Assembly (NCBI GenBank): GCA_963792585.1
Contig: CAWBWI010000001.1
Span: 640,001 to 704,000 of the forward strand
From: Candidatus Eiseniibacteriota bacterium
GTDB lineage: Bacteria > Eisenbacteria > RBG-16-71-46 > CAIMUX01 > VGJL01
Direction of reading: 5' to 3'
Length of the DNA stretch: 64,000 nt
Positions 39,891 through 62,836 of this stretch are shown here, one piece after another (positions within the stretch are counted from its first letter, which is position 1; every line of letters starts with the position of its first letter). The notes beneath the pieces were generated by a model, which had not been told where the DNA came from, ran no database searches, and worked only from the letters and a program-made list of their open reading frames with translations. Made by a program: the position numbers and the translations under genes.

Positions 39891-39966
39891 GCTGGCTTAG
39901 CTCAGTTGGTAGAGCGCTAGACTGAAAATCTGGAAGTCCGCAGTTCGAATCTGCGAGCCAGCACCA
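39891..39966 (+). tRNA. tRNA-Phe (GAA)
   Basis: 76-nt cloverleaf, anticodon loop CTGAAAA, TTCGA, encoded CCA. Confidence 0.96.
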
Positions 39967-43831: not shown

Positions 43832-43927
43832 GGGAGCGCATGGGTCCTGGTGGGTCCCAAGGACTTCAAATCCTCTGTCGGGCGTTTCTGCGTCCGGGGT
43901 GGGTTCGATTCCCACACGTTCCCGCCA
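43832..43927 (+). tRNA. selC: tRNA-Sec (TCA)
   Basis: 96 nt; 6-bp D stem with TGGT loop; GGACTTCAAATCC anticodon arm; long variable arm; GGTTCGATTCC; G73-CCA. Confidence 0.93.
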
Positions 43928-50606: not shown

Positions 50607-50743
50607 TCGCGTCGGCCCTGATCGGGCCGCATAGATCGGCAACGGCACAGATCGGGCCGTCCGTTGCCAGTCCGATCGCGATCGCATAGCATCGGTAGTT
50701 TCACGACCCGCGGTGCGACGCCGCCGCGATGAGGGGAGGGCGA

Positions 50744-52351
50744 TTGGAGACTCTCGAGAGCAGGATCGACCTGAACGACCCGACCTATCGGGAGAACCAG
50801 GCCCATCATGCGAGCCTCCGTGACCAGCTCCGCTCGCGATTGGCCGTGATTCGCGAAGGCGGACCCGCCGAGTCGCGCGAGCGGCACGTCAAGCGGGGCA
50901 AGCTCCTGCCGCGCGATCGGATCACGAGGCTCTGTGATCCGGGAACCCCATTCCTCGAGTTGATGCCGCTGGCGGCGTACGAAATGTACGGAGGCGAGGT
51001 TCCCGCGGCGGGGATCGTGACCGGGATCGGTCGGGTCAGCGGACTCGAGTGCATGATCATCGTCAACGATGCGACCGTGAAGGGCGGAACCTACCATCCG
51101 ATCACGGTGCGCAAGCACGTCCGCGCCCAGGAGATCGCGCTCGAGAACGGCTTGCCCTGTGTCTACCTGGTCGACTCGGGCGGCGCGTTTCTGCCGCTTC
51201 AGGCCGAGGTCTTCCCGGACGAGAAGCACTTCGGGAGGATCTTCTACAACCAGGCCCAGATGAGCGCGGCGGGGATTCCGCAGGTGGCCGCGGTGCTCGG
51301 CTCCTGCACGGCGGGAGGCGCCTACGTTCCCGCGATGAGCGACGAGACCGTCATCGTCCGCAATCAGGGGACGATCTTCCTCGCGGGGCCGCCCCTGGTG
51401 AAGGCGGCGACGGGTGAGGAAGTCACGGCGGAAGACCTGGGTGGCGCGGAAGTCCACTGCAAGGTCTCGGGCGTGGCCGACCACATCGCCGACGATGACG
51501 CGCATGCTCTGGATACGGTGCGGGAGATCCTGGCGCACGCCAACCGCGCAACGGCGTCGACGGCGGTCGTCGCCCCGCCGGAAGACCCTCAGTATGACCC
51601 GGCGGAGATCCTCGGGATCCTGCCGAAGGATCTGCGTCATCCCTTCGATGTGCGCGAGATCCTGGCGCGGCTGCTCGACGGTAGCCGGTTCCACGAGTTC
51701 AAGAGGCTGTATGGATCGACCCTCGTGTGCGGTTTCGGCCGAATCCACGGCTACCCGGTCGGGATCCTGGCGAACAACGGCGTCCTCTTCTCGGAGAGCG
51801 CCCTGAAGGGGACGCACTTCATCGAGCTGGCGAGCCAGCGAAAGATCCCCCTTCTCTTCCTGCAGAACATCACCGGCTTCATGGTGGGGCGACGGTACGA
51901 GTCGGGCGGCATCGCCAAAGACGGCGCGAAGCTCGTGCAAGCGGTTGCGACGAGCGCGGTGCCGAAGATCACCGTGATCATCGGCGGATCGTTTGGCGCG
52001 GGGAATTACGGCATGTGCGGCCGCGCGTTTGCGCCGCGATTCCTGTTCATGTGGCCCAACGCGCGGATCTCCGTCATGGGGGGCGAGCAGGCCGCCGGCG
52101 TTCTGGTCACGGTCAAGCGGGATCAGTTGTCCGTACGCGGCGAGAAGCTGTCCGCCCAGGATGAGGCCGCGATCACGAGGCCCATCCTCGAGAAGTACGA
52201 AACCGAGGGGAATCCGTACTACAGCTCGGCCCGACTCTGGGACGACGGAATCCTCGACCCGCTCGAGACGCGAAGGGTCCTCGCCCTCTGCCTCTCGACG
52301 GTCCTGGGCCGACCGGTCGGCGAGAGCCGCTTCCCGGTCTTCCGGATGTAG
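50744..52351 (+). CDS. liuB: Methylcrotonyl-CoA carboxylase beta subunit
   Basis: [44 protein letters not shown]. Confidence 0.92.
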
Positions 52352-52359
52352 GGGGGTCG

Positions 52360-53154
52360 ATGACCGCTGGAATCACTCTGGTCCGGGAGGGAGACGTCGC
52401 GCGCGTCCGGCTGACGCGCGCGGATCGCCGCAACGCGCTCGACGAAGCGATGATCGCAGGTCTCCGCGAGGCATTCGCATCGATCGAATCCGGCCCGGAT
52501 GTGCGCGTGGTCGTGATCGAGGGGGAGGGCGAGGCCTTCTGTGCGGGGGCTGACCTTGCGTGGATGCAGCGGATCGGGGAGGCGGATCGGGAGACCAACC
52601 GCCTCGACGCGCTGAACATCTCGGCGATGTTCCGTGGCGTCGCCGACTGCCCCTTTCCCGTGCTGGCCCGCGTGCATGGCGCCGCGCTGGGCGGTGGGGC
52701 CGGGCTCGCGGCGGCCGCGGACATCGCCGTTGCCGATTCCAAGGCGGTATTCGGTTTCACGGAGGTCCGCCTCGGGATCGTCCCCGCCGTGATCTCCCCG
52801 TTCGTCCTGCGAAAGGTGGGAGCGGGGGATGCGCGACGGTATTTCCTCACCGGAGAACGATTCTCCGCCGCCGAGGCGCTGCGGATCGGGCTCGTGCAGG
52901 TCACCGCGGAGCCCGACGCGCTCGACGCGACCGTCGATCGGCTCATTGGAGAACTGCTGGCCGGTGGACCCGTGGCGCAACGAGAGGTCAAATCGCTCAT
53001 CGAGCGATTACGCGGGACGAAGGAGGAGGAGCAATCGGCGCTGACCGCCGACCTCATCGCCCGCCTCCGCGCCTCGGATGAGGGCCGGGAGGGGATGCGC
53101 GCCTTCCTCGAGCGCCGGGCGCCGTCGTGGGCGCCTCGGAAGGAGGGTCGATGA
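52360..53154 (+). CDS. liuC: Methylglutaconyl-CoA hydratase (crotonase family)
   Basis: FCAGADL, ALGGGAGL, EVRLGIVPAVISP; context. Confidence 0.85.
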   Translation: MTAGITLVREGDVARVRLTRADRRNALDEAMIAGLREAFASIESGPDVRVVVIEGEGEAFCAGADLAWMQRIGEADRETNRLDALNISAMFRGVADCPFPVLARVHGAALGGGAGLAAAADIAVADSKAVFGFTEVRLGIVPAVISPFVLRKVGAGDARRYFLTGERFSAAEALRIGLVQVTAEPDALDATVDRLIGELLAGGPVAQREVKSLIERLRGTKEEEQSALTADLIARLRASDEGREGMRAFLERRAPSWAPRKEGR

Positions 53155-54650
53155 TCCGGCGACTCCTCGTAGCGAATCGTGGTGAGATCGCCGTGCGCGT
53201 GATCCGGGGGGCGCGCGAGCTTGGGATCGAGACCGTCGCGGTCTATTCCGAAGCCGATCGGCAAGCGCTGCACGTGCGGACCGCCGATCGCGCGGTCGCG
53301 ATCGGCCCGCCGCCGGCGCGCGACAGCTACCTGAACATCGAGGCCGTGCTGGGGGCCGCGCGCACGACCGGGTGCGACGCGCTGCATCCCGGCTACGGCT
53401 TCCTGGCTGAGTCGGCGGATTTCGCGGAAGCCTGCGCGGCCGCAGGGCTGATCTTCGTCGGTCCGCCGGCGGAGGCGATGCGGGCGCTGGGAGACAAGAA
53501 GAGAGCCCGTGCGCTTGCCGAGAAGGCGGGTTTGCCCGTTGTGCCCGGCTACTCGGGGGCGACGGACGATGTCAAGACGCTGACCGAGCGTGCCCTCGCC
53601 GTGGGCTTTCCCCTGCTCGTCAAGGCGTCCGCCGGAGGCGGCGGCAAGGGAATGCGCAAGGTCGACCGAGTCGAGGATCTTCCGGACGCCCTCGCCTCGG
53701 CGCGGCGTGAGGCGGAGGCGGCCTTCGGGGACGGGATGCTCCTGCTCGAACGCTATCTCGATCCGGTTCGCCACGTGGAGATCCAGATCATTGCCGATGC
53801 GCAGGGAAACGTCGTCTCCTTCGGGGAGAGGGACTGCTCCCTGCAGCGACGGCATCAGAAGATCGTCGAAGAGGCGCCCTCTCCGGCCGTCGGCCACGAA
53901 CTTCGTATGCGGATGGGGGAAGCGGCGGTCGCGCTCGCTCGAACCGCCGGGTATCGCTCGGCCGGAACGGTCGAATTCATGCTCGATGGCGACGGGCATT
54001 TCTACTTCCTGGAGGTGAACACCCGCCTGCAGGTGGAGCATCCCGTCACGGAGCTGATCACGGGATACGATCTCGTGCAGATGATGTTGCGCGAGGCGGT
54101 GGGGGAACCGCTGCGGGTCCACAAGCGCCAGATTGCTCCGCGCGGACACGCGATCGAGGCGCGCATCTACGCCGAGGATCCGGAGAACGGCTTTCTCCCC
54201 TCACCAGGGCCGATCCTCTTCGCGCGGATGCCGGCCGGGCCGGGAATCCGCGTCGATGCGGGCATTGCCACGGGGTGCGAGGTCAGCGTGCACTACGATC
54301 CGATCCTGGCGAAGGTCGTCGCGCATCACGAGGACCGGGAGGGCGCGATCCGGCGACTTCGACGCGCGCTCGCGGAGACGATCATCTTGGGGGTCCGCAC
54401 CAACCTCCCGTTCCTGCAGGCCGTTCTCGCGCACCCGGAATTCGAAAGGGGCGCGGCGAATACCCGCACGGTCGAGCGTTCGTTCGGAGGCTGGCAAGCT
54501 ATGACGGCTCCGCCCCCCCCGGTCGTGCTCGCTGCGGCTGCTTTCACGGAGATGACCGGCTCCAAGCGGACCCCGGGGAGAACGCCCGGGGAAGCGGCCG
54601 CGTACTCGCCGTGGAACGGGCCGGAGTTTCGTATCGGAGAGTCGGCATGA
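53151..54650 (+). CDS. liuD: Biotin carboxylase subunit of MCC
   Basis: ANRGEIA, HPGYGFLAE, GGGGKGMR, RDCSLQRRHQK, EVNTRLQVEH. Confidence 0.9.
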   Translation: MIRRLLVANRGEIAVRVIRGARELGIETVAVYSEADRQALHVRTADRAVAIGPPPARDSYLNIEAVLGAARTTGCDALHPGYGFLAESADFAEACAAAGLIFVGPPAEAMRALGDKKRARALAEKAGLPVVPGYSGATDDVKTLTERALAVGFPLLVKASAGGGGKGMRKVDRVEDLPDALASARREAEAAFGDGMLLLERYLDPVRHVEIQIIADAQGNVVSFGERDCSLQRRHQKIVEEAPSPAVGHELRMRMGEAAVALARTAGYRSAGTVEFMLDGDGHFYFLEVNTRLQVEHPVTELITGYDLVQMMLREAVGEPLRVHKRQIAPRGHAIEARIYAEDPENGFLPSPGPILFARMPAGPGIRVDAGIATGCEVSVHYDPILAKVVAHHEDREGAIRRLRRALAETIILGVRTNLPFLQAVLAHPEFERGAANTRTVERSFGGWQAMTAPPPPVVLAAAAFTEMTGSKRTPGRTPGEAAAYSPWNGPEFRIGESA

Positions 54651-55159
54651 GAATCGATCGCACCTATGGTTGGGGATGGGGGGACGTGACGATCGAGGCT
54701 TCCTGCGAGGGGCGCGAACTCCTGCTCCGGGTCGACGGAGCGGAGCATTCTTTCTCGATCGATGAGCCGGAAGCCTGCGTCCAGTTTCTCCGTTCCGAAT
54801 CGGGGACCGATTCGATCGCCGCGGTTGATCGTGACGGCAAGATCTGGATCCACCACCTGGGGCAAACCTACTGTCTCGAAGCGCGGAGTCAGAAGCGCCG
54901 AAGCGCGGGTGTGGCCGCCGGTCGTCTCGGGCCGATCGAGTCTCCCATGACCGGGACGGTGCGGCGCGTCCTGGCCGCAAAGGGACAATCGGTCGCGCAG
55001 GGGGAACCGCTCGTCGTCCTGGAGGCGATGAAGATGGAACTCAGCGTGCGCGCCCCCGTGGCCGGCCGGGTCGGGTCGGTCATGGCCAGCGAGGGAGAAC
55101 GCGTAGAGCAGGGAAGCGTTCTCCTCGTGCTCCTGCCTCTCACGGAGGATGGGGCGTGA
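54647..55159 (+). CDS. Biotin carboxyl carrier protein (separate MCC alpha C-terminal module)
   Basis: SPMTG, EAMKME biotinylation motif. Confidence 0.9.
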   Translation: MRIDRTYGWGWGDVTIEASCEGRELLLRVDGAEHSFSIDEPEACVQFLRSESGTDSIAAVDRDGKIWIHHLGQTYCLEARSQKRRSAGVAAGRLGPIESPMTGTVRRVLAAKGQSVAQGEPLVVLEAMKMELSVRAPVAGRVGSVMASEGERVEQGSVLLVLLPLTEDGA

Positions 55160-56063
55160 CCCGCGCGACCCCCGATCGCGTTCGCATCGTCGAGGTCGGC
55201 CCTCGGGACGGCCTCCAGAACGAGTATGGGACGGTCCCCGTCGAGATTCGCGTGCGCTTCATCGAGCAGCTGGTGGCGGCGGGACTGACGGAGATCGAGG
55301 TCGGCAGCTTCGTTCGCCCCAGTGGGTGCCGCAGATGGCCGATACCGATGATGTGGTCCGTAGGCTCCCGCCCGCGCCCGGGGTCACCTATTCCGCGCTC
55401 GTCCCCAACGAGAAGGGCATGCTGCGCGCGATGGCCTCCGGGCTCCGATCGGTCGCGGTCTTCACGGCCGCAAGCGAGACCTTCAACCTCAAGAACACCA
55501 ACGCCGATTGCAAGTCGCTCGAACGATTCCGGCCCGTCCTGGACCTTGCTCGTGGCGAACGGATCCACGTGCGCGGGTACGTGTCGACGGCCTTCGCCTG
55601 CCCCTACGAGGGACCGATTCCGCCCGCGCAGGCCGTCGAGGTGTCCCAGCGTCTGTTCGAGATGGGCGTGGACGAGGTGTCGGTCGGCGACACGATCGGC
55701 ATGGCCACGCCGCGCGACGTGCGGGCGTTCATCGCCGCCGCGGATGGGACCCTGGATCCGGCGAAACTCGCCTTCCACTTCCACGACACCCGAGGAATCG
55801 CTCTCGCCAACGTACTGACCGCCATCGAGGATGGGTTCGCGATCTTCGACGCATCGGCCGGAGGACTCGGAGGGTGCCCCTACGCGCCGGGGGCGAGCGG
55901 CAATCTCGCGACCGAGGATCTTGTCTACATGCTCGCCGGGATGGGGATCGCGACGGGGGTGGACCTGAACCTACTCGCCGCGGCCTCGAGCACGATCGAG
56001 CGCTCCCTGGATCACCCCCTTCCCTCCAAGGCGTACCGCGCCCTGCGCGCGTGCCAAGCCTGA
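55156..56063 (+). CDS. liuE: Hydroxymethylglutaryl-CoA lyase (frameshift ~55318)
   Basis: EVGPRDGLQNE in one frame; WVPQMAD, HFHDTRG, GGCPYAPGASGN in another. Confidence 0.9.
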
Positions 56064-56156: not shown

Positions 56157-57310
56157 TTGGCGAAGCGCGACTTCTATGAAGTCCTCGGGGTCGAACGGGA
56201 ACCGACGCCCGACGCGATAAAGAAGGCCTACCGCAAGCTGGCCATCCAGCACCACCCGGACAGCAATCCCGGCGACAAGACCGCCGAGGAGACGTTCAAG
56301 GAGGTGACGGAGGCCTACGAAGTCCTCTCCGACGAACAGAAGCGCTCCGCCTACGACCAGTACGGCCACGCGGGGGTCGACCCGAGCTATTCGGGAGGCG
56401 GCCCCGGGCCCGGGGGGTTCGGATTCGACCTGTCCGACGCCCTGCGCGCCTTCATGCGGGAGTTCGGCTGGTTCGGCTCGAGGTTCGAAGGGGACGACGG
56501 CTTCGGGCGATCGCGTGAGAGCCGCGGAGCCGACATCCAGGTAAGGGTCCGCCTGACCCTCGAGGAGATCGCCGAAGGCGTCGAGAAGAAGATCCGCTTG
56601 AAGAAGGCGGTCGTCTGCTCCCACTGCAAGGGCAAGGGGGCGGAGCCCGGCAGTTCGGTCATCACATGCACCCAGTGTGAGGGCCAGGGGCAAGTCCGTC
56701 AGGTCCAGCGTTCCTTCTTCGGTCAGATCGTCAACGTGACGACCTGTCCGCGTTGCCGCGGCGAAGGAGAGATCGTCCGCAACCCGTGCAAGCCGTGCGG
56801 TGGTGAAGGGAAGGTCGAAGGGAGCGAGACCGTGGCGGTCAAGATCCCCGCGGGAGTCATGGAAGGCAACTACATGACGCTCCGCGGCCACGGCCACATC
56901 GGCTACCGGGGCGCGTCGCCCGGGGATCTGATCGTCGTCATCGAGGAGAAGCCCCACGAGATCTTCGAACGGCACGGCGAGATATCCTGACGCGGATCAC
57001 GATCACGCCCGCGATGGCGGCCCTCGGCACGAAGGTGGACGTTCCGACGCTCACCGGGCGGGCCATCGTGGAGATCCCTCACTCGATTCAGGCGGGAAAG
57101 GTCCTGCGCCTTCGCGGCAAGGGGACTGAAGTCTCTGCGCGGTTCCGAGCAGGGCGATGAGCTGATCCGGGTCGAGATCCGGGTACCGGAGAAGCTCTCC
57201 GGCCAGGAGCGCGAGCTGTACGAGGAGCTGCCGCCGGCTCGAGGGCGATCATCCCGCCGAAGGCGGAGCGGGGGTTCTTCGAGCGGGTTCGGGATGCATT
57301 CTCGGGCTGA
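56157..57310 (+). CDS. dnaJ: Chaperone DnaJ (frameshifts after ~56980)
   Basis: HPD motif, four CxxCxGxG repeats; C-terminal AALGTKVDVPTL, VLRLRGKG, GFFERVRDAFSG* in shifted frames. Confidence 0.93.
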
Positions 57311-57314
57311 GACG

Positions 57315-58062
57315 ATGGCGCGGGATCCCCATCCATTCCTCGTCGCCCCCGGATCGCTTCGACGCCCGACGGCCGGGTGCGTTTCCCGGCCGACGAGGCG
57401 CATCACGCCCGACGCGTCGTGCGCCTCGGATCCGGAGACGAGTGTCGGGTCGTCGATGGTCGCGGCGGGCTCTTTCGGGTCCGTCTGGAGGAGGACGCGA
57501 GCGAACTCGTCCGGCGGATCCTCGAGACGTCGCGGGAAGCGCGCGGCGAGCCGCTCGCGGTGCTGGGGTTTCCGGTCCTGCGGCAGCACGCGCGCGCGGA
57601 CTGGCTGATCGAGAAAGCGGTCGAGGTCGGGATCGATCGTCTCATACCGGTCGCGTGGGAACGAATCGATAAAGGGCGCGACGGCGGATCAACGGCGCCG
57701 GTGGGAGCGGATCGCGCGCGAGGCGATGAAGCAGTCGGAGCGCGGGTGGCTCCCGGGCATCGGTCCGAGAGGCGACCCCGAGCGAGCTGCCTCGGGACCA
57801 GCGGATGGTCCTCGCAGACCCTGAAGGGGAAGCGGATTTGCCCGATCTGACGGAGGCCTCCTCGGTGATGCTCTTGGTCGGTCCGGAGGGCGGGCTGACC
57901 GATGACGAGAAGCGGATGATGATCGAACGCGGTTGCGCGCTCTGGTCGTTGGGCCCGACACGCCTGAGGGCGGAGACCGCTGCCGTTGTTGGATCGCACA
58001 GACTCACCTGCGCCGCGCGCGCGTCGCGGGCACGGACGAGACCCGTGGAAGGGGGACGTTGA
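57315..58062 (+). CDS. rsmE: 16S rRNA m3U1498 methyltransferase (several frameshifts)
   Basis: EAHHARRVVRL, IEKAVEVG, EAMKQS, VGPEGG, LGPTRLRAETAA across frames. Confidence 0.88.
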
Positions 58063-58066
58063 GACC

Positions 58067-59578
58067 ATGTCATTGACCGAGGAACAGGTTCGCCTCCTGA
58101 AGACACTGGCGGCCCTTCCCGACGGAGAACGGGTGGACGCGCTGGCCGCACGGCTGGAGATCGACCAGGCGCGGGTATCGGCCGCTTCCGTCCAGCTTCG
58201 GGATGCGGGATTCGTGCGGATCGAGGAGGAGCCGTTCCGCGAGCTGGCCATCCGGCCGGATGGGCGACGCTCCGCCAGCGAGGGGTTCCCCGAACGACGG
58301 GTCCTTCGAGCGTTGATCGCAGGTGGAGGAGCCCTTTCTATGGCCGATGCCGCCGCGAAGAGCGGACTCGAGGCCAAGGAGGTCGGGGGCAGCCTGCGTT
58401 GGCTGACAGGTCGTGGCTGGGCGCGGAAGGACGGCTCTCTCCTGCACGCCCTCGTTTCGGAGCCGGAGCCTTGCGCCGATGAGCGGCTCATCGCGGAACT
58501 CGATCGGCGCGAGAAGGCGCCGGAAGCCGACCTTCGCGCCGCCGGCCTTCCCGTTGACGAGGCGATCGAGTTGCTCAAGGGGCGCGCGAGCTGGTGCGAG
58601 GTGCGCGAAAAGGTCCATCGCCGCGTCGTCCTCGAAGAGGCGGGCAGGAAGATGGCCTCGGCCGATCTGAGGGCGACGACCGAGGTAACTCAGTTGACGC
58701 CGGAACTGATCGCCTCGGGTCGTTGGCGCGAGGTGAGCGTGCGGGCCTACGACGTCCGACTCGCGACCGACCCGATCCACCCGGGAAAGCGCCACCCGTT
58801 GCAGCGGATCCTCGACGAGACTCGTCACAATTTCCTGGAGATGGGTTTTCAGGAGACGATCTCGCCGGTTGCGGAATCGGCCTTCTGGGATTTCGACGCC
58901 CTCTTCCAGCCGCAGGACCATCCCGCGCGGGAGATGCAGGACACCTTCTACCTCGCAGCCCCCGCCACGGCCGCATTGCCGTCGGACGCCAAGCTGGTCG
59001 ATGCCGTGCGGCGCGCGCACGAGGACGGGGGAGACACCGGATCGATCGGCTGGCAATACCGATGGGACGCGGATCGCGCGCGCCGGATGGTCCTGCGCAC
59101 GCATACGACCGCGACGACGATCCGATCGCTGGCTGCCGATCCCATCGGTCCGCGGCGCGTCTTCTCCGTCGGCAGGGTCTTCCGCAGCGAGACGATCGAC
59201 TACAAGCACCTGCCGGTGTTCCACCAGGTGGACGGGATCGTCATCGACGCGGATGCGTCCTTCGCGACGCTGCTGGGCACGCTCGCGGCGTTCTATCGGA
59301 AGATGGGCTTCGAGCAGTTGCAGTTCCGGCCGGCCTTCTTCCCGTACACCGAGCCGAGCGTGGAGGTCTACATTGGTTCGAAAGAGGAAGGATGGGTGGA
59401 GATGGGGGGGGCGGGCATCTTCCGCCCCGAGGTGACGGAGCCGCTGGGCTGCAAGCAGCCGGTGCTCGCCTGGGGCCTCGGCCTCGAGCGCTCGCCATGC
59501 TGCGCTACGACCTCTCGGACATCCGCGAACTCTACCGCCCGACACGGAGTGGTTGAAGGGGTGCCGCTATGCCGGTGA
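58067..59578 (+). CDS. pheS: Phenylalanyl-tRNA synthetase alpha subunit, archaeal/eukaryal type (~500 aa; indels near the 3' end)
   Basis: FDALFQPQDHPAREMQDTFY, LRTHTT, GRVFRSE, FHQVDG, FFPYTEPS, GAGIFRPE, AWGLGLER; long N-terminal extension. Confidence 0.93.
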   Translation: MSLTEEQVRLLKTLAALPDGERVDALAARLEIDQARVSAASVQLRDAGFVRIEEEPFRELAIRPDGRRSASEGFPERRVLRALIAGGGALSMADAAAKSGLEAKEVGGSLRWLTGRGWARKDGSLLHALVSEPEPCADERLIAELDRREKAPEADLRAAGLPVDEAIELLKGRASWCEVREKVHRRVVLEEAGRKMASADLRATTEVTQLTPELIASGRWREVSVRAYDVRLATDPIHPGKRHPLQRILDETRHNFLEMGFQETISPVAESAFWDFDALFQPQDHPAREMQDTFYLAAPATAALPSDAKLVDAVRRAHEDGGDTGSIGWQYRWDADRARRMVLRTHTTATTIRSLAADPIGPRRVFSVGRVFRSETIDYKHLPVFHQVDGIVIDADASFATLLGTLAAFYRKMGFEQLQFRPAFFPYTEPSVEVYIGSKEEGWVEMGGAGIFRPEVTEPLGCKQPVLAWGLGLERSPCCATTSRTSANSTARHGVVEGVPLCR

Positions 59579-61445
59579 TCGGAATCCCGCTCGATCTTCT
59601 GCGCAAGCGGCTCGGCGCCGACCTGCCGGGGGAGCGCCTCCTGCGCGTGCTGGAGCAGATCGGCTGCGACGTGGAAGGCTTCGCGCGCCTGAAGCGGACG
59701 CGTTGCCGCTCGTGCGGCTGGATCGAAGAGCGGACCGAGACCGAAGAGTCTCCGGCCCGTTGCGATCGCTGCGACGCGGACCACCGGCAGGATCCCGCCA
59801 GCATCGAGGATCTCGCCGACCTCGAGGTCGTCCGGATGGAACTCCTGGCCGTTCGGCCCGACATGTTCGATCCGGGCGGACTCGCCCGCGCGCTTCGCGG
59901 CTATCTCGAGCTCGAGACGGGGCCCGTCGGCTACGACGTGGGTCCCGCCGCGGCGCGTGTGCGGGTCGACCGAGCGTTCGCGATGCGCGATCCTCTCGGC
60001 CGTTCATCGCGTGCGCGGTGATCGAGGGCGCGCGGCTCGACGGCGACCTGGTCAAGGTCGTCATGAAGCTGCAGGAGAACCTCCACTGGGCGCTCGGCCG
60101 CGATCGCAAGCTCGCGTCGATCGGCGTCTACGATTTCGACACGATCGCGGCCGACCTCGAGTACTCCACGGAAGACCCGGATCAAGGCCGTTTCGTGCCG
60201 CTGGGAGCGACGGACGGGCAGGCGCGCACGTTGCGGGAGATCCTGGAGGAGCATCCGAAGGGTCGGGCCTACAAACACCTGCTGGAGAGCTTCGCGCGCT
60301 ATCCGATCCTGCGCGACTCTCGGGGGCAGGTGCTCTCGATGCCGCCGATCATCAACAGCGAGGAGACGAAGGTCCATCTGGGGAGCACGAGGCTCTTCAT
60401 CGACGTCACCGGCACCGGTGAGCGGATCGTTCAGCGGGCGCTGAACATCCTCGTCACGTCCCTCATGGAGAATCTGCCGGGCGTCAAGGCCCGCGCGGTC
60501 TCCATCGACGGCGCGAGCACGGAGGATGGGAAGGCGGGGCGTCCGGCGACCCTCTCCACGCCCGACCTCTCGCCCCAGAAGGCCCAGGTTCATGTCGAGG
60601 CCGCGTCGCGTCTGATCGGCGTTCCCATGACGACGGAGCAGGCGGCGAAGCTACTGGAGCGGATGCGCCATGGGGTGCGCACCGCCGGCACGGACCTGCT
60701 CGAGGTCGCGGTGCCTGCCTATCGAAATGACATCCTCCACGAGCGCGATCTGATGGAGGACCTCGCCATCGCCTATGGATACCACCGGATCGTCCCGGAG
60801 CTGCTCCCCGCGCGAACGGTGGGACGGGCCCTCCCGCTGGAGAATCTCACGGGGAACGTTCGCGACACGCTCTGCGGTCTCGGGTTCCACGAGGTGATGA
60901 CCCTGGTGCTCACCAACGACGAGGAGAGCGACCTGGCGCTCGGCAGGAACGTCGATGGCCGGGCCGTGCGGATCGAGAACCCGATCTCCGGAGAGCAAAC
61001 GCGGTTGCGGACCCGACTCATTCCCGGGCTCCTGCAAGTGTTCCGTCACAACCTCCACCAGCCGCTGCCGCAGCGGATCTTCGAGGTCGGGGACGTGACC
61101 TGGCTCGACCCCGAGGCCGAGACGGAAGCGGTCGAGCAACGGATGATCAGCTTCGCTCTGATCTCACCCAAGGCCGGATTCACCGACGCCCGGGCGCTGG
61201 CGGAGGCGATCGTGCGGGAGTTCGGCGTTGCGATCGACTGGGAGCCGGCGCAGGAAGCGCCTTTCCTGACGGGACGCTGCGCTCGGATCCGCACAACGGC
61301 GGGGGACCCGATCGGAATCCTCGGGGAGATTGACCCGGAGGTGCTCGAACGGCTCGGCCTCGAGAACCCCGTGGCGACGGGGGAACTCTGGCTCGAAGGC
61401 CTGGCGGGTCGCCCGCCGCGCCTCCAGTTCTCTCTCGACGATTGA
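59569..61445 (+). CDS. pheT: Phenylalanyl-tRNA synthetase beta subunit, archaeal/eukaryal type (frameshift ~59990)
   Basis: RPDMFDPGGLARALRGYL, LQENLH..LGRDRK..SIGVYD, MPPIINSE, VPAYRNDILHERDLMEDLAIAYGY, LPQRIFEVG. Confidence 0.92.
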
Positions 61446-61447
61446 GC

Positions 61448-62836
61448 ATGCGCGTCACCGCGGCCCTGGCGCTTCTCTTCTTCGCCGCGACCGGCGCGGG
61501 CGCGACGCCGGCGGGTCTCTCGGCCGAGCTGGCGGGCAAGGGCGCGCCGGCGGGCGTGGCCGTGAGCATCTGCTTCGCGCCGATTTGCGGAGATGGTCCG
61601 CGCGTCTCGCTGGATGCGGAACGGCCCCTGCCGCCGGCAAGCGTCCAGAAGATCGTCACGTCGGCGGCCGTCCTCGATCTCCTGGGACCGGATCACACCT
61701 TCGAGACCCGCGTGCGCGCGGACGGCTCGATCCAGGGGCCTCGCATGGATGGAAACCTCTATCTGGAGGGGGACGGGGATCCTTTCCTGGTCTCCGAGCG
61801 GCTCTGGCTGCTCGCCCAGGACCTCGCGGCGACGGGACTTCGCGAGGTCGGCGGCTCCCTCATCGTCAACGCGAGAAGGGTCGCGGACCTCGACTCGATC
61901 CGCATCGCCGAACGCACCGATAGCCCCTATGCGTCGCCCGTCTCGCGACTCGGGGTCAACTTCAACAATCTCTGTTTTCTCGTGCGTCCTGCCCCGCGGG
62001 CTGGGGCGCCCGCCTTCGTCGCCTGCGATCCGTATCCCGTTGCAGGGGTCTCGATCGACAACCAGGTCCGCACAGGGGCGGCGGCTCCCATCGAGATGAC
62101 CCGATCCTCATGGAAGGGAGCGGAACGGTGGACGGTGCGGGGCTCGGTTCCCCCCGACGCGACGCCCGAGCGCATTTATCGCGCGGCCGCGGATCCCGCC
62201 CGCCTCGCAGGGAGCGTTCTGATGGGCCTCATGAAGGAGACCGGCATTGTCGTGCGCACGGTCGCCGCGGGGGCCGCGCCCAAGAGCGCGCCGGTCGTCG
62301 CCCGTCTCTCTTCGTTGCCTCTGGGCGAGTTGGTGCGGAGCATGAACGGCTACAGCAACAACTTCATGGCCGACCTCCTGCTCGCCGACATCGGCGAGGG
62401 AAGCGCGCGCGTTGGGGCGGAACGCGTCCGCGGGTGGCTCGCGCAGAGCGTTGGTTTGCGGTCCCTTCCGGAGATCCGGGACGGAAGCGGCCTCTCCGGC
62501 GCGAATCGGATCTCCGCCGCGCAGATCGTCGGGGTTCTGGAATGGGCCTCCCGAAGCGAGCGGGTCTTCCCGGACCTGTACGCTTCCCTGCCCCGGCCGC
62601 ACGGTTCCGGGACCCTCGAGAAGCGCTTCCGCGACGCGAGCGCTCCCGCGGTGCGCGCCAAGACGGGCACGCTCGGGGATCGGGGGGTATCGAGCATCGC
62701 AGGCTACATCGACACCGCCGCGGGGGAGCGCTATGCCTTCTGCATCATCCAGCAGGCATCGCCCGAGTCGGGAGTCAAGGTCGCCGACCTGCGCGCCCGT
62801 GAGGAGGCCTGGCTCCGCCTCTTCGTGGCACCTTGA
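61448..62836 (+). CDS. dacB: D-Ala-D-Ala carboxypeptidase/endopeptidase PBP4
   Basis: PASVQK (SxxK), SNN, DGSGLS, AKTGT; signal peptide. Confidence 0.92.
   Translation: MRVTAALALLFFAATGAGATPAGLSAELAGKGAPAGVAVSICFAPICGDGPRVSLDAERPLPPASVQKIVTSAAVLDLLGPDHTFETRVRADGSIQGPRMDGNLYLEGDGDPFLVSERLWLLAQDLAATGLREVGGSLIVNARRVADLDSIRIAERTDSPYASPVSRLGVNFNNLCFLVRPAPRAGAPAFVACDPYPVAGVSIDNQVRTGAAAPIEMTRSSWKGAERWTVRGSVPPDATPERIYRAAADPARLAGSVLMGLMKETGIVVRTVAAGAAPKSAPVVARLSSLPLGELVRSMNGYSNNFMADLLLADIGEGSARVGAERVRGWLAQSVGLRSLPEIRDGSGLSGANRISAAQIVGVLEWASRSERVFPDLYASLPRPHGSGTLEKRFRDASAPAVRAKTGTLGDRGVSSIAGYIDTAAGERYAFCIIQQASPESGVKVADLRAREEAWLRLFVAP

Follow-up and report, generated by a model that had tools for sequence, protein, structure and literature searches.

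The genome of a Candidatus Eiseniibacteriota bacterium (GenBank assembly GCA_963792585.1) contains genes for both subunits of phenylalanyl-tRNA synthetase (PheRS), pheS and pheT, which on their sequences are of the archaeal/eukaryal type and are the only PheRS genes found in it. They lie in a stretch of 64,000 nucleotides (contig CAWBWI010000001.1, positions 640,001 to 704,000), the whole of which is called the window here (Table 1). This enzyme is likely (probability about 0.85) to have entered the ancestor of the organism's order from another bacterium and to have displaced the native pheST genes.

Enzyme type and loss of the native genes

The product of pheS (503 amino acids as read) scores 500.7 bits against the archaeal model PRK04172 (cut-off 350) and also passes TIGR00468 (342.8 bits, cut-off 237.45). 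The class II catalytic core (PF01409) occupies residues 228-475, and the motifs QDHPAREMQDTF, GRVFRSE, FPYTEPS and WGLGLER were placed in the sequence. The N-terminal half is winged-helix-like, with Pfam matches to MarR_2 (E 1.4e-6) and HTH_IclR (E 3.1e-5) that cover residues 3-56 and 78-123, and PheS has no Pfam match to Phe_tRNA-synt_N. The PheS proteins of eight relatives that were compared have 502-516 residues and a conserved C-terminal tail. The product of pheT (about 625 codons, beginning MPVIGIP, with a start that overlaps the end of pheS by 10 bp) carries the motifs LQENLH at 60066, GRDRK..SIG at 60096 and MPPIINSE at 60336, and neither part of its broken frame has a Pfam match to tRNA_bind (the B2 OB-fold) or FDX-ACB (B8). 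The C-terminal part of PheT alone scores 403.4 bits against the archaeal model TIGR00471 (cut-off 282.65) and falls below the bacterial model TIGR00472 (140.2 bits, cut-off 402.65). A preliminary description, made from the letters of the window, had read a PheS of about 500 residues with a long N-terminal extension and a PheT of about 620 residues with these motifs and no OB or FDX-ACB domain, and had called both archaeal/eukaryal; all of this agrees with the archaeal and bacterial hidden Markov models and the domain searches.

Intact relatives of the pair are 66-72% identical to it, the nearest named ones being Ca. Eisenbacteria (66-69%). For the PheT of L037, an intact relative that shares 69% identity with the window protein in the C-terminal part, the best sequence matches in the PDB are 8s8b and the human (3l4g), Plasmodium and Pyrococcus horikoshii proteins (E 1e-54 to 1e-67), versus E 1e-22 at best for bacterial chains. 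The structural model of this PheT (predicted local distance difference test, pLDDT, 94) superposes on the P. horikoshii fragment 2CXI with Z 43.2 and a root-mean-square deviation (rmsd) of 1.7 over 345 residues, versus Z 24.7 for the best bacterial chain. In the alignment, N263 of L037 falls opposite the Asn of the human MPPIIN stretch, and 77 of 77 rows have this Asn; by our own reading of the numbering, it may be the human Asn238 of PMC3275996.

Like the archaeal/eukaryal cytosolic enzymes (PheRS-A; human 3L4G, P. horikoshii 2CXI), which its fold matches, the window enzyme combines a long winged-helix alpha subunit with a beta subunit of B1, B3/4, B5 and a catalytic-like module, without B2 or B8 and with the invariant editing-site Asn. 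Unlike them, it resides in a bacterial host, has a four-cysteine (C4) insert of 45-50 residues in B1, and must read U20 in its tRNA, versus the G20 that PMC9976931 gives for archaea and eukaryotes. Bacterial PheRS-B (E. coli 3PCO, T. thermophilus 1B70) catalyzes the same reaction and has its B1 interrupted at the same point, but its subunits are of about 340 and 800 amino acids, with a coiled-coil alpha N-terminus, a B2 OB-fold and B8.

The genome (84% complete, in 7 contigs) has one PF01409 match, which is the window pheS, no TIGR00472 match over the cut-off, and no FDX-ACB match anywhere. In relatives with the bacterial type the gene order is thrS-infC-rplT-pheS-pheT-zapB-zapA-rny-ymdB-folD (complete at locus L122, and at L125 and L128 in the parts scanned). 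At the old site of the window genome, which lies about 170 kb before the window genes on the same contig of 2.0 Mb, the order is infC, rplT, 10 bp, zapB, zapA, 6S RNA, rny, ymdB and folD. The thrS gene has also been relocated in this genome, to contig C3. The same scar is seen in other genomes of the order: rplT was matched in 33 of its 35 genomes, and in all 30 rplT loci returned for the analysis zapA follows 260-541 bp behind rplT and pheS has no match. None of the 35 genomes has a bacterial pheT over the TIGR00472 cut-off.

A survey of the phylum, in which one unpublished genome (G071) is counted, found 37 of 193 genomes over the archaeal cut-off, namely 31 of the 32 from the window's order (in the remaining one the match is fragmentary) and 6 of the 161 from elsewhere in the phylum. 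Four genomes had no match, and the 151 with weak matches to the archaeal model are read as probably of the bacterial type, with Pfam confirmation for two. The sequences of the order form one clade in the PheT trees. The third-position GC content (GC3) of pheST (0.83-0.87) is that of the neighboring genes (0.82-0.87) and overall GC matches too, for which reason a recent transfer was rejected. The scar, the near-universal presence of the archaeal type and the neighbor-like GC3 together indicate that gain of the archaeal-type genes and loss of the bacterial ones likely predate the radiation of the order. Thus, the genome-wide search for a bacterial pheST sustains the earlier proposal of a replacement, not an accessory copy: none was found, and the old site behind rplT is empty.

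The tRNA-Phe(GAA) gene of the window is of the bacterial type. U20 and A37 occur in all 30 tRNA-Phe genes that were examined, the best 30 of 60 matches (23 from the order, 2 from genomes with the insert-less enzyme described below, and 5 from genomes with the bacterial enzyme). Position 20 is an identity element, U20 in bacteria and G20 in archaea and eukaryotes, according to PMC9976931. U20 having been retained, the tRNA was not exchanged along with the enzyme; co-adaptation of the tRNA at this position is rejected, since U20 is present whatever the enzyme type, and the absence of the G20 expected for an archaeal/eukaryal PheRS lies with the tRNA of the host and not with the family of the enzyme. 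In tRNA-Phe, all 23 examined genomes of the order have a U28-G42 wobble pair and all 7 from outside it C28-G42, a difference confounded with kinship. A second ARAGORN call of tRNA-Phe (G000:C1:448328-448394, 67 nt, with a poor D-arm) is probably spurious.

The four-cysteine insert and its carriers

Domain B1 of the window PheT contains an insert that the preliminary description does not mention, with a CxxC-x15-CxxC motif at 59704-59772. All four cysteines are conserved without exception in two sets of aligned carriers (42 of 42 and 57 of 57), and the motif is present in 69 of 71 bacterial rows, the other two being rows without the N-terminus. It is absent from all 94 archaeal rows (duplicates and a few partial rows included), and no archaeal carrier appears among the named homologue matches either, most matches carrying no name; all 120 of 120 homologues contain the insert, but they were found with a query that contains it. 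By alignment, the insert is flanked by the same B1 segments that in bacterial PheT lie on either side of the B2 OB-fold, and thus sits in the B2 slot; a structural match agrees with this, residues 1-191 of the bacterial chain 2rhs aligning over 67 residues to residues 4-115 of the model described below.

The AlphaFold2 model of a relative (pLDDT 92) has a long beta-hairpin with the cysteines at its tip, and the insert is predicted to be a C4 zinc ribbon of two CxxC knuckles on a beta-ribbon that likely binds one Zn2+. Residues 40-85 of the model match, weakly, the zinc finger of the MCM helicase 4me3 (Z 5.3, rmsd 2.5, 46 residues) and that of 6xtx (Z 5.2, rmsd 1.6, 41 residues); MCM zinc fingers as a group score Z 4.6-5.3, and rubredoxin or rubrerythrin Z 3.9-4.1. 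RUBY_RBDX matches occur in 11 of 42 carriers, so iron is a possible ligand as well. These weak superpositions on MCM C4 ribbons and rubredoxin-like domains imply no shared function, and among the Pfam zinc-ribbon families in the tables examined none passes its cut-off on the insert. Besides the cysteines few residues are conserved, mainly E54, P62 and R43, the last (in 35 of 42 carriers) belonging to a small basic patch on the stalk. The B1 domain of human 3l4g_B aligns with residues 1-115 of the model over 87 residues, and the Pyrococcus domain over 73; the longer human alignment hints that this loop is extended in eukaryotes as well, and the position may be especially prone to insertions. 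The family PF27353 is precomputed on two insert-bearing PheT proteins (P0147 and P0169) and is absent from the local Pfam scan. No description of the insert or of the clade that bears it was found in the open-access literature, subscription journals and supplements being outside the scope of that search.

Three PheT trees were built with the insert columns removed, namely a FastTree tree, a quick mixture-model tree (60 rows) and a careful LG+G4 tree (36 rows), and there is a PheS tree besides. Carriers of the insert are monophyletic in all of them (47 of 47 rows in the FastTree tree, 22 of 22 in the mixture-model tree, 11 of 11 at 100/100 support in the LG+G4 tree, and 46 of 46 with support 99 in the PheS tree), and the agreement of PheS with PheT indicates that the two genes travel as a pair. 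The trees served also as a test of whether these proteins nest within bacterial PheRS, a possibility that the preliminary description had raised; the archaeal type, to which the window proteins belong, separates from the bacterial type at 100/100 in PheT (LG+G4) and at 100 in PheS, with no eukaryote rows included. In the three free PheT trees the clade falls within the archaeal sequences, next to methanogen-type rows (support 99, 98 and 91/95), as it does in the PheS tree (88).

Record titles within the clade include Planctomycetota (among them a complete Uabimicrobium genome), Myxococcota, Vulcanimicrobiota, Actinomycetota, Caldithrix, Omnitrophota, Acidobacteriota and Spirochaetia. A bacterial-type pheT is absent from 11 of 12 bacterial carriers checked, the twelfth being likely mis-binned. 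The insert form has a patchy distribution: it is found in 6 of 81 genomes of the Uabimicrobium phylum, with 7 more insert-less, and in 3 of 61 genomes of the phylum of the Spirochaetia record, with 9 more insert-less. Six Planctomycetota/Pirellulales records (L089, L091, L095, L101, L103 and L104) have insert-type pheST directly behind rplT, the ancestral position, which differs from the Eisenbacteria, whose insert-type pair lies elsewhere. Insert-type pheT genes in records titled Burkholderiales are nearly identical to Vulcanimicrobiota/Xenobia copies (loci L076, L078, L081, L083 and L070) and likely sit on mis-binned contigs. One Burkholderiales record (G204) has a bacterial-type pheT as well, and the first 110 residues of its insert-type protein are the same as those of Xenobia and Eremiobacteraeota records; that genome is therefore likely mis-binned, and some phylum labels are unsafe.

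Six genomes from three other families of the same class (G035, G039 and G041-G044) encode an insert-less form of the archaeal type (L116-L121) that is 32-34% identical to that of the window, groups with spirochaete-like rows and sits in unrelated neighborhoods. Approximately unbiased (AU) tests reject a clade that unites both Eisenbacteria forms (p-AU 1e-98) and a single clade of all bacterial archaeal-type rows (p-AU 0.001; LG+G4, 36 rows, with spirochaete rows assigned by phylum only). The insert-less Eisenbacteria pheST is, judged from these sequences, a second, independent acquisition. The archaeal type was said earlier to be known in few bacteria, such as some spirochetes, through horizontal transfer; transfer holds, but the type is not rare, and the C4-insert carriers of several phyla are a separate clade. 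Like the PheRS of Spirochaeta, Treponema and Borrelia, which was described as an archaeal-type replacement of the bacterial enzyme inherited as a clade marker (Andam and Gogarten 2011, PMC3191353), that of the window has replaced a bacterial enzyme, but the spirochaete form lacks the insert and its published donor is near Thermococcales (same source).

Proposed origin of the enzyme and possible role of the insert

In the proposed history, the native genes behind rplT would have been lost and the new pair would have settled behind dnaJ-(rsmE). Weighing against this reading, or against a tRNA-related role of the insert, are the following: the genome is 84% complete and frameshifted as assembled; Thermococci, Thermoplasmatota, DPANN, Asgard and eukaryotes are not knowingly in the trees; grouping of the clade with methanogen-type sequences has a bootstrap of 91 only; a placement of the clade outside all other archaeal-type rows, as their sister, is compatible with the AU test (p-AU 0.185); the structural matches of the insert, at Z 4-5, are at a level that may reflect a common arrangement; and 40 of 42 carriers have a net acidic insert and none a basic one, which does not favor RNA binding. 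The unrejected sister position, the archaeal rows without the insert and the lack of archaeal names among the named matches would all suit a lineage that is an ancient sister of the archaeal/eukaryal type, derived from an unsampled or extinct donor and later moved only among bacteria; this is a rather unlikely origin, given that the free PheT trees and the PheS tree place the clade inside archaeal rows. The earlier notion of a cross-domain transfer therefore holds as to the archaeal type of the enzyme, but a direct step from archaea to this lineage would be conjecture, since its nearest relatives are bacterial and a position outside the sampled archaea is not rejected. A common transfer for this enzyme and the archaeal-type PheRS of spirochaetes is improbable: the architecture and size range are those described for spirochaetes in PMC3191353, and six genomes of the same class carry a spirochaete-like form, but both AU rejections and the low identity of the insert-less form oppose it. 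We attach very little probability to the window pair being an accessory or decaying copy, or part of a contaminant contig, while an unassembled bacterial pheST is in use; such a gene might be sought in the missing part of the genome, and both window genes have frame breaks, but the same contig includes the old site, assembled and without pheST, the bacterial form is absent from all 35 genomes of the order, five other genes are broken too, and relatives at 66-72% identity are intact.

Acquisition from another bacterium, the favored reading, would have brought in an (alpha-beta)2 enzyme, by analogy with its family (PMC3275996). Its alpha subunit would activate Phe, with the winged-helix domains gripping the tRNA in place of the missing B8, and its beta subunit would edit Tyr-tRNA-Phe in B3/4, at the invariant Asn, as in related enzymes; it would have to charge a bacterial-type tRNA-Phe with U20. 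For the insert we favor, as speculation and at clearly less than even odds, a B2-like accessory arm that helps to place the acceptor end of the tRNA or stabilizes the B1-B3/4 module. A contribution of B2 to editing is suggested by the title of a paper (Roy and Ibba 2006) cited in PMC5370408. The bacterial B2 stretch is likewise neutral to acidic (0 to -9 in 9 rows), so that charge does not discriminate for or against RNA binding. The chances are not far below even that the insert has no tRNA role and is purely a structural zinc ribbon, or an iron- or redox-sensitive rubredoxin-like site, at an insertion-prone loop. Its acidic surface, the few conserved residues beyond Cys, the closeness of the rubredoxin/rubrerythrin scores to those of MCM, the RUBY_RBDX matches and the fact that archaeal enzymes manage without it all point that way, but it is kept in 69 of 69 N-terminally intact bacterial rows and in every homologue retrieved with the insert-bearing query, and it occupies the B2 slot. 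It is doubtful, though conceivable, that a bacteria-only subfamily has repeatedly displaced native PheRS across phyla, the ribbon being a convergent substitute for the lost B2 OB-fold that either fits the enzyme to the U20 of bacterial tRNA-Phe or gives back the editing that B2 assists.

Neighboring genes and significance for the family

The new pheST site is behind dnaJ-(rsmE) in three families of the order (f1-f3), and dacB follows pheT only in the window's own family (f1). The preliminary description, which had the replacement fixed between rsmE and dacB, was therefore right that it is old and fixed, but the new genes are not in the place of the old, and the dacB junction is particular to one family. 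Comparison with an intact relative shows a frame change in pheT near 59970, a point at which related contigs from short reads (two studies, about 90% identity, other strains) have one base more. The last 90 bp or so of pheS contain several breaks, and the tail that is conserved in relatives is split over three frames. Since thrS, rny, ymdB, dnaJ and rsmE are likewise broken into frames, the breaks are likely assembly errors and not decay.

Table 1. Features of the window and of the emptied ancestral site
Feature	Position	Strand	Evidence or remarks
pheS, archaeal/eukaryal-type PheRS alpha	58067..59578	+	PRK04172, PF01409, HTH matches, class II motifs; ATG at 58067, frame stop at 59578
pheT, archaeal/eukaryal-type PheRS beta (B1, B3/4 editing, B5, catalytic-like module; without B2, B8)	59569..61445	+	TIGR00471, Pfam; MPVIGIP start at 59569, end at 61445
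49-residue insert in PheT B1	59680..59826	+	four-Cys conservation, slot alignment, model of relative
tRNA-Phe(GAA), likely substrate; bacterial type (U20, A37, A73, encoded CCA)	39891..39966	+	ARAGORN, Rfam
Ancestral operon without pheST	G000:C1:526170-530608 (L279, L280), outside the window		rplT stop 526547, zapB start 526558
dnaJ, broken into frames, conserved upstream neighbor across the order	56157..57310 (end approximate)	+	Pfam, synteny
rsmE, broken into frames, upstream neighbor	57377..58062	+	PUA_4 and Methyltrans_RNA matches on two pieces; indels versus related contigs
dacB-like peptidase S13, downstream neighbor	61442..62836	+	PF02113 (237 bits), synteny

Searched with Rfam at the gathering threshold, the window gave tRNAs and nothing else, and thus no T-box or other leader RNA; a tRNA-Sec gene is found at 43832-43923 (ARAGORN, Rfam). 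Positions 50729-56063 hold a run of genes (carboxyltransferase, enoyl-CoA hydratase, biotin carboxylase, biotin carrier and HMG-CoA lyase, the names being taken from translations) that presumably resembles a leucine catabolism cluster.

The replacement is an old one by a known type of enzyme, not a new kind of system, and what sets it apart is the insert domain. A core two-subunit enzyme of translation has been displaced by an archaeal form, which is not just a spirochaete oddity, and a single bacterial class holds three types of PheRS: bacterial, spirochaete-like and the one with the predicted zinc ribbon. A table of PMC7214798 includes both PheS (TIGR00468) and PheT (TIGR00472) with the BAC120 markers; the foreign PheS passes the former model and PheT fails the latter, so that such genomes would contribute one xenologous marker and lack the other. 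From the deletion scar, the exchange probably dates to the ancestor of one order, and the insert is a clean marker for later transfers from bacterium to bacterium, as well as a testable new domain in the slot of B2.

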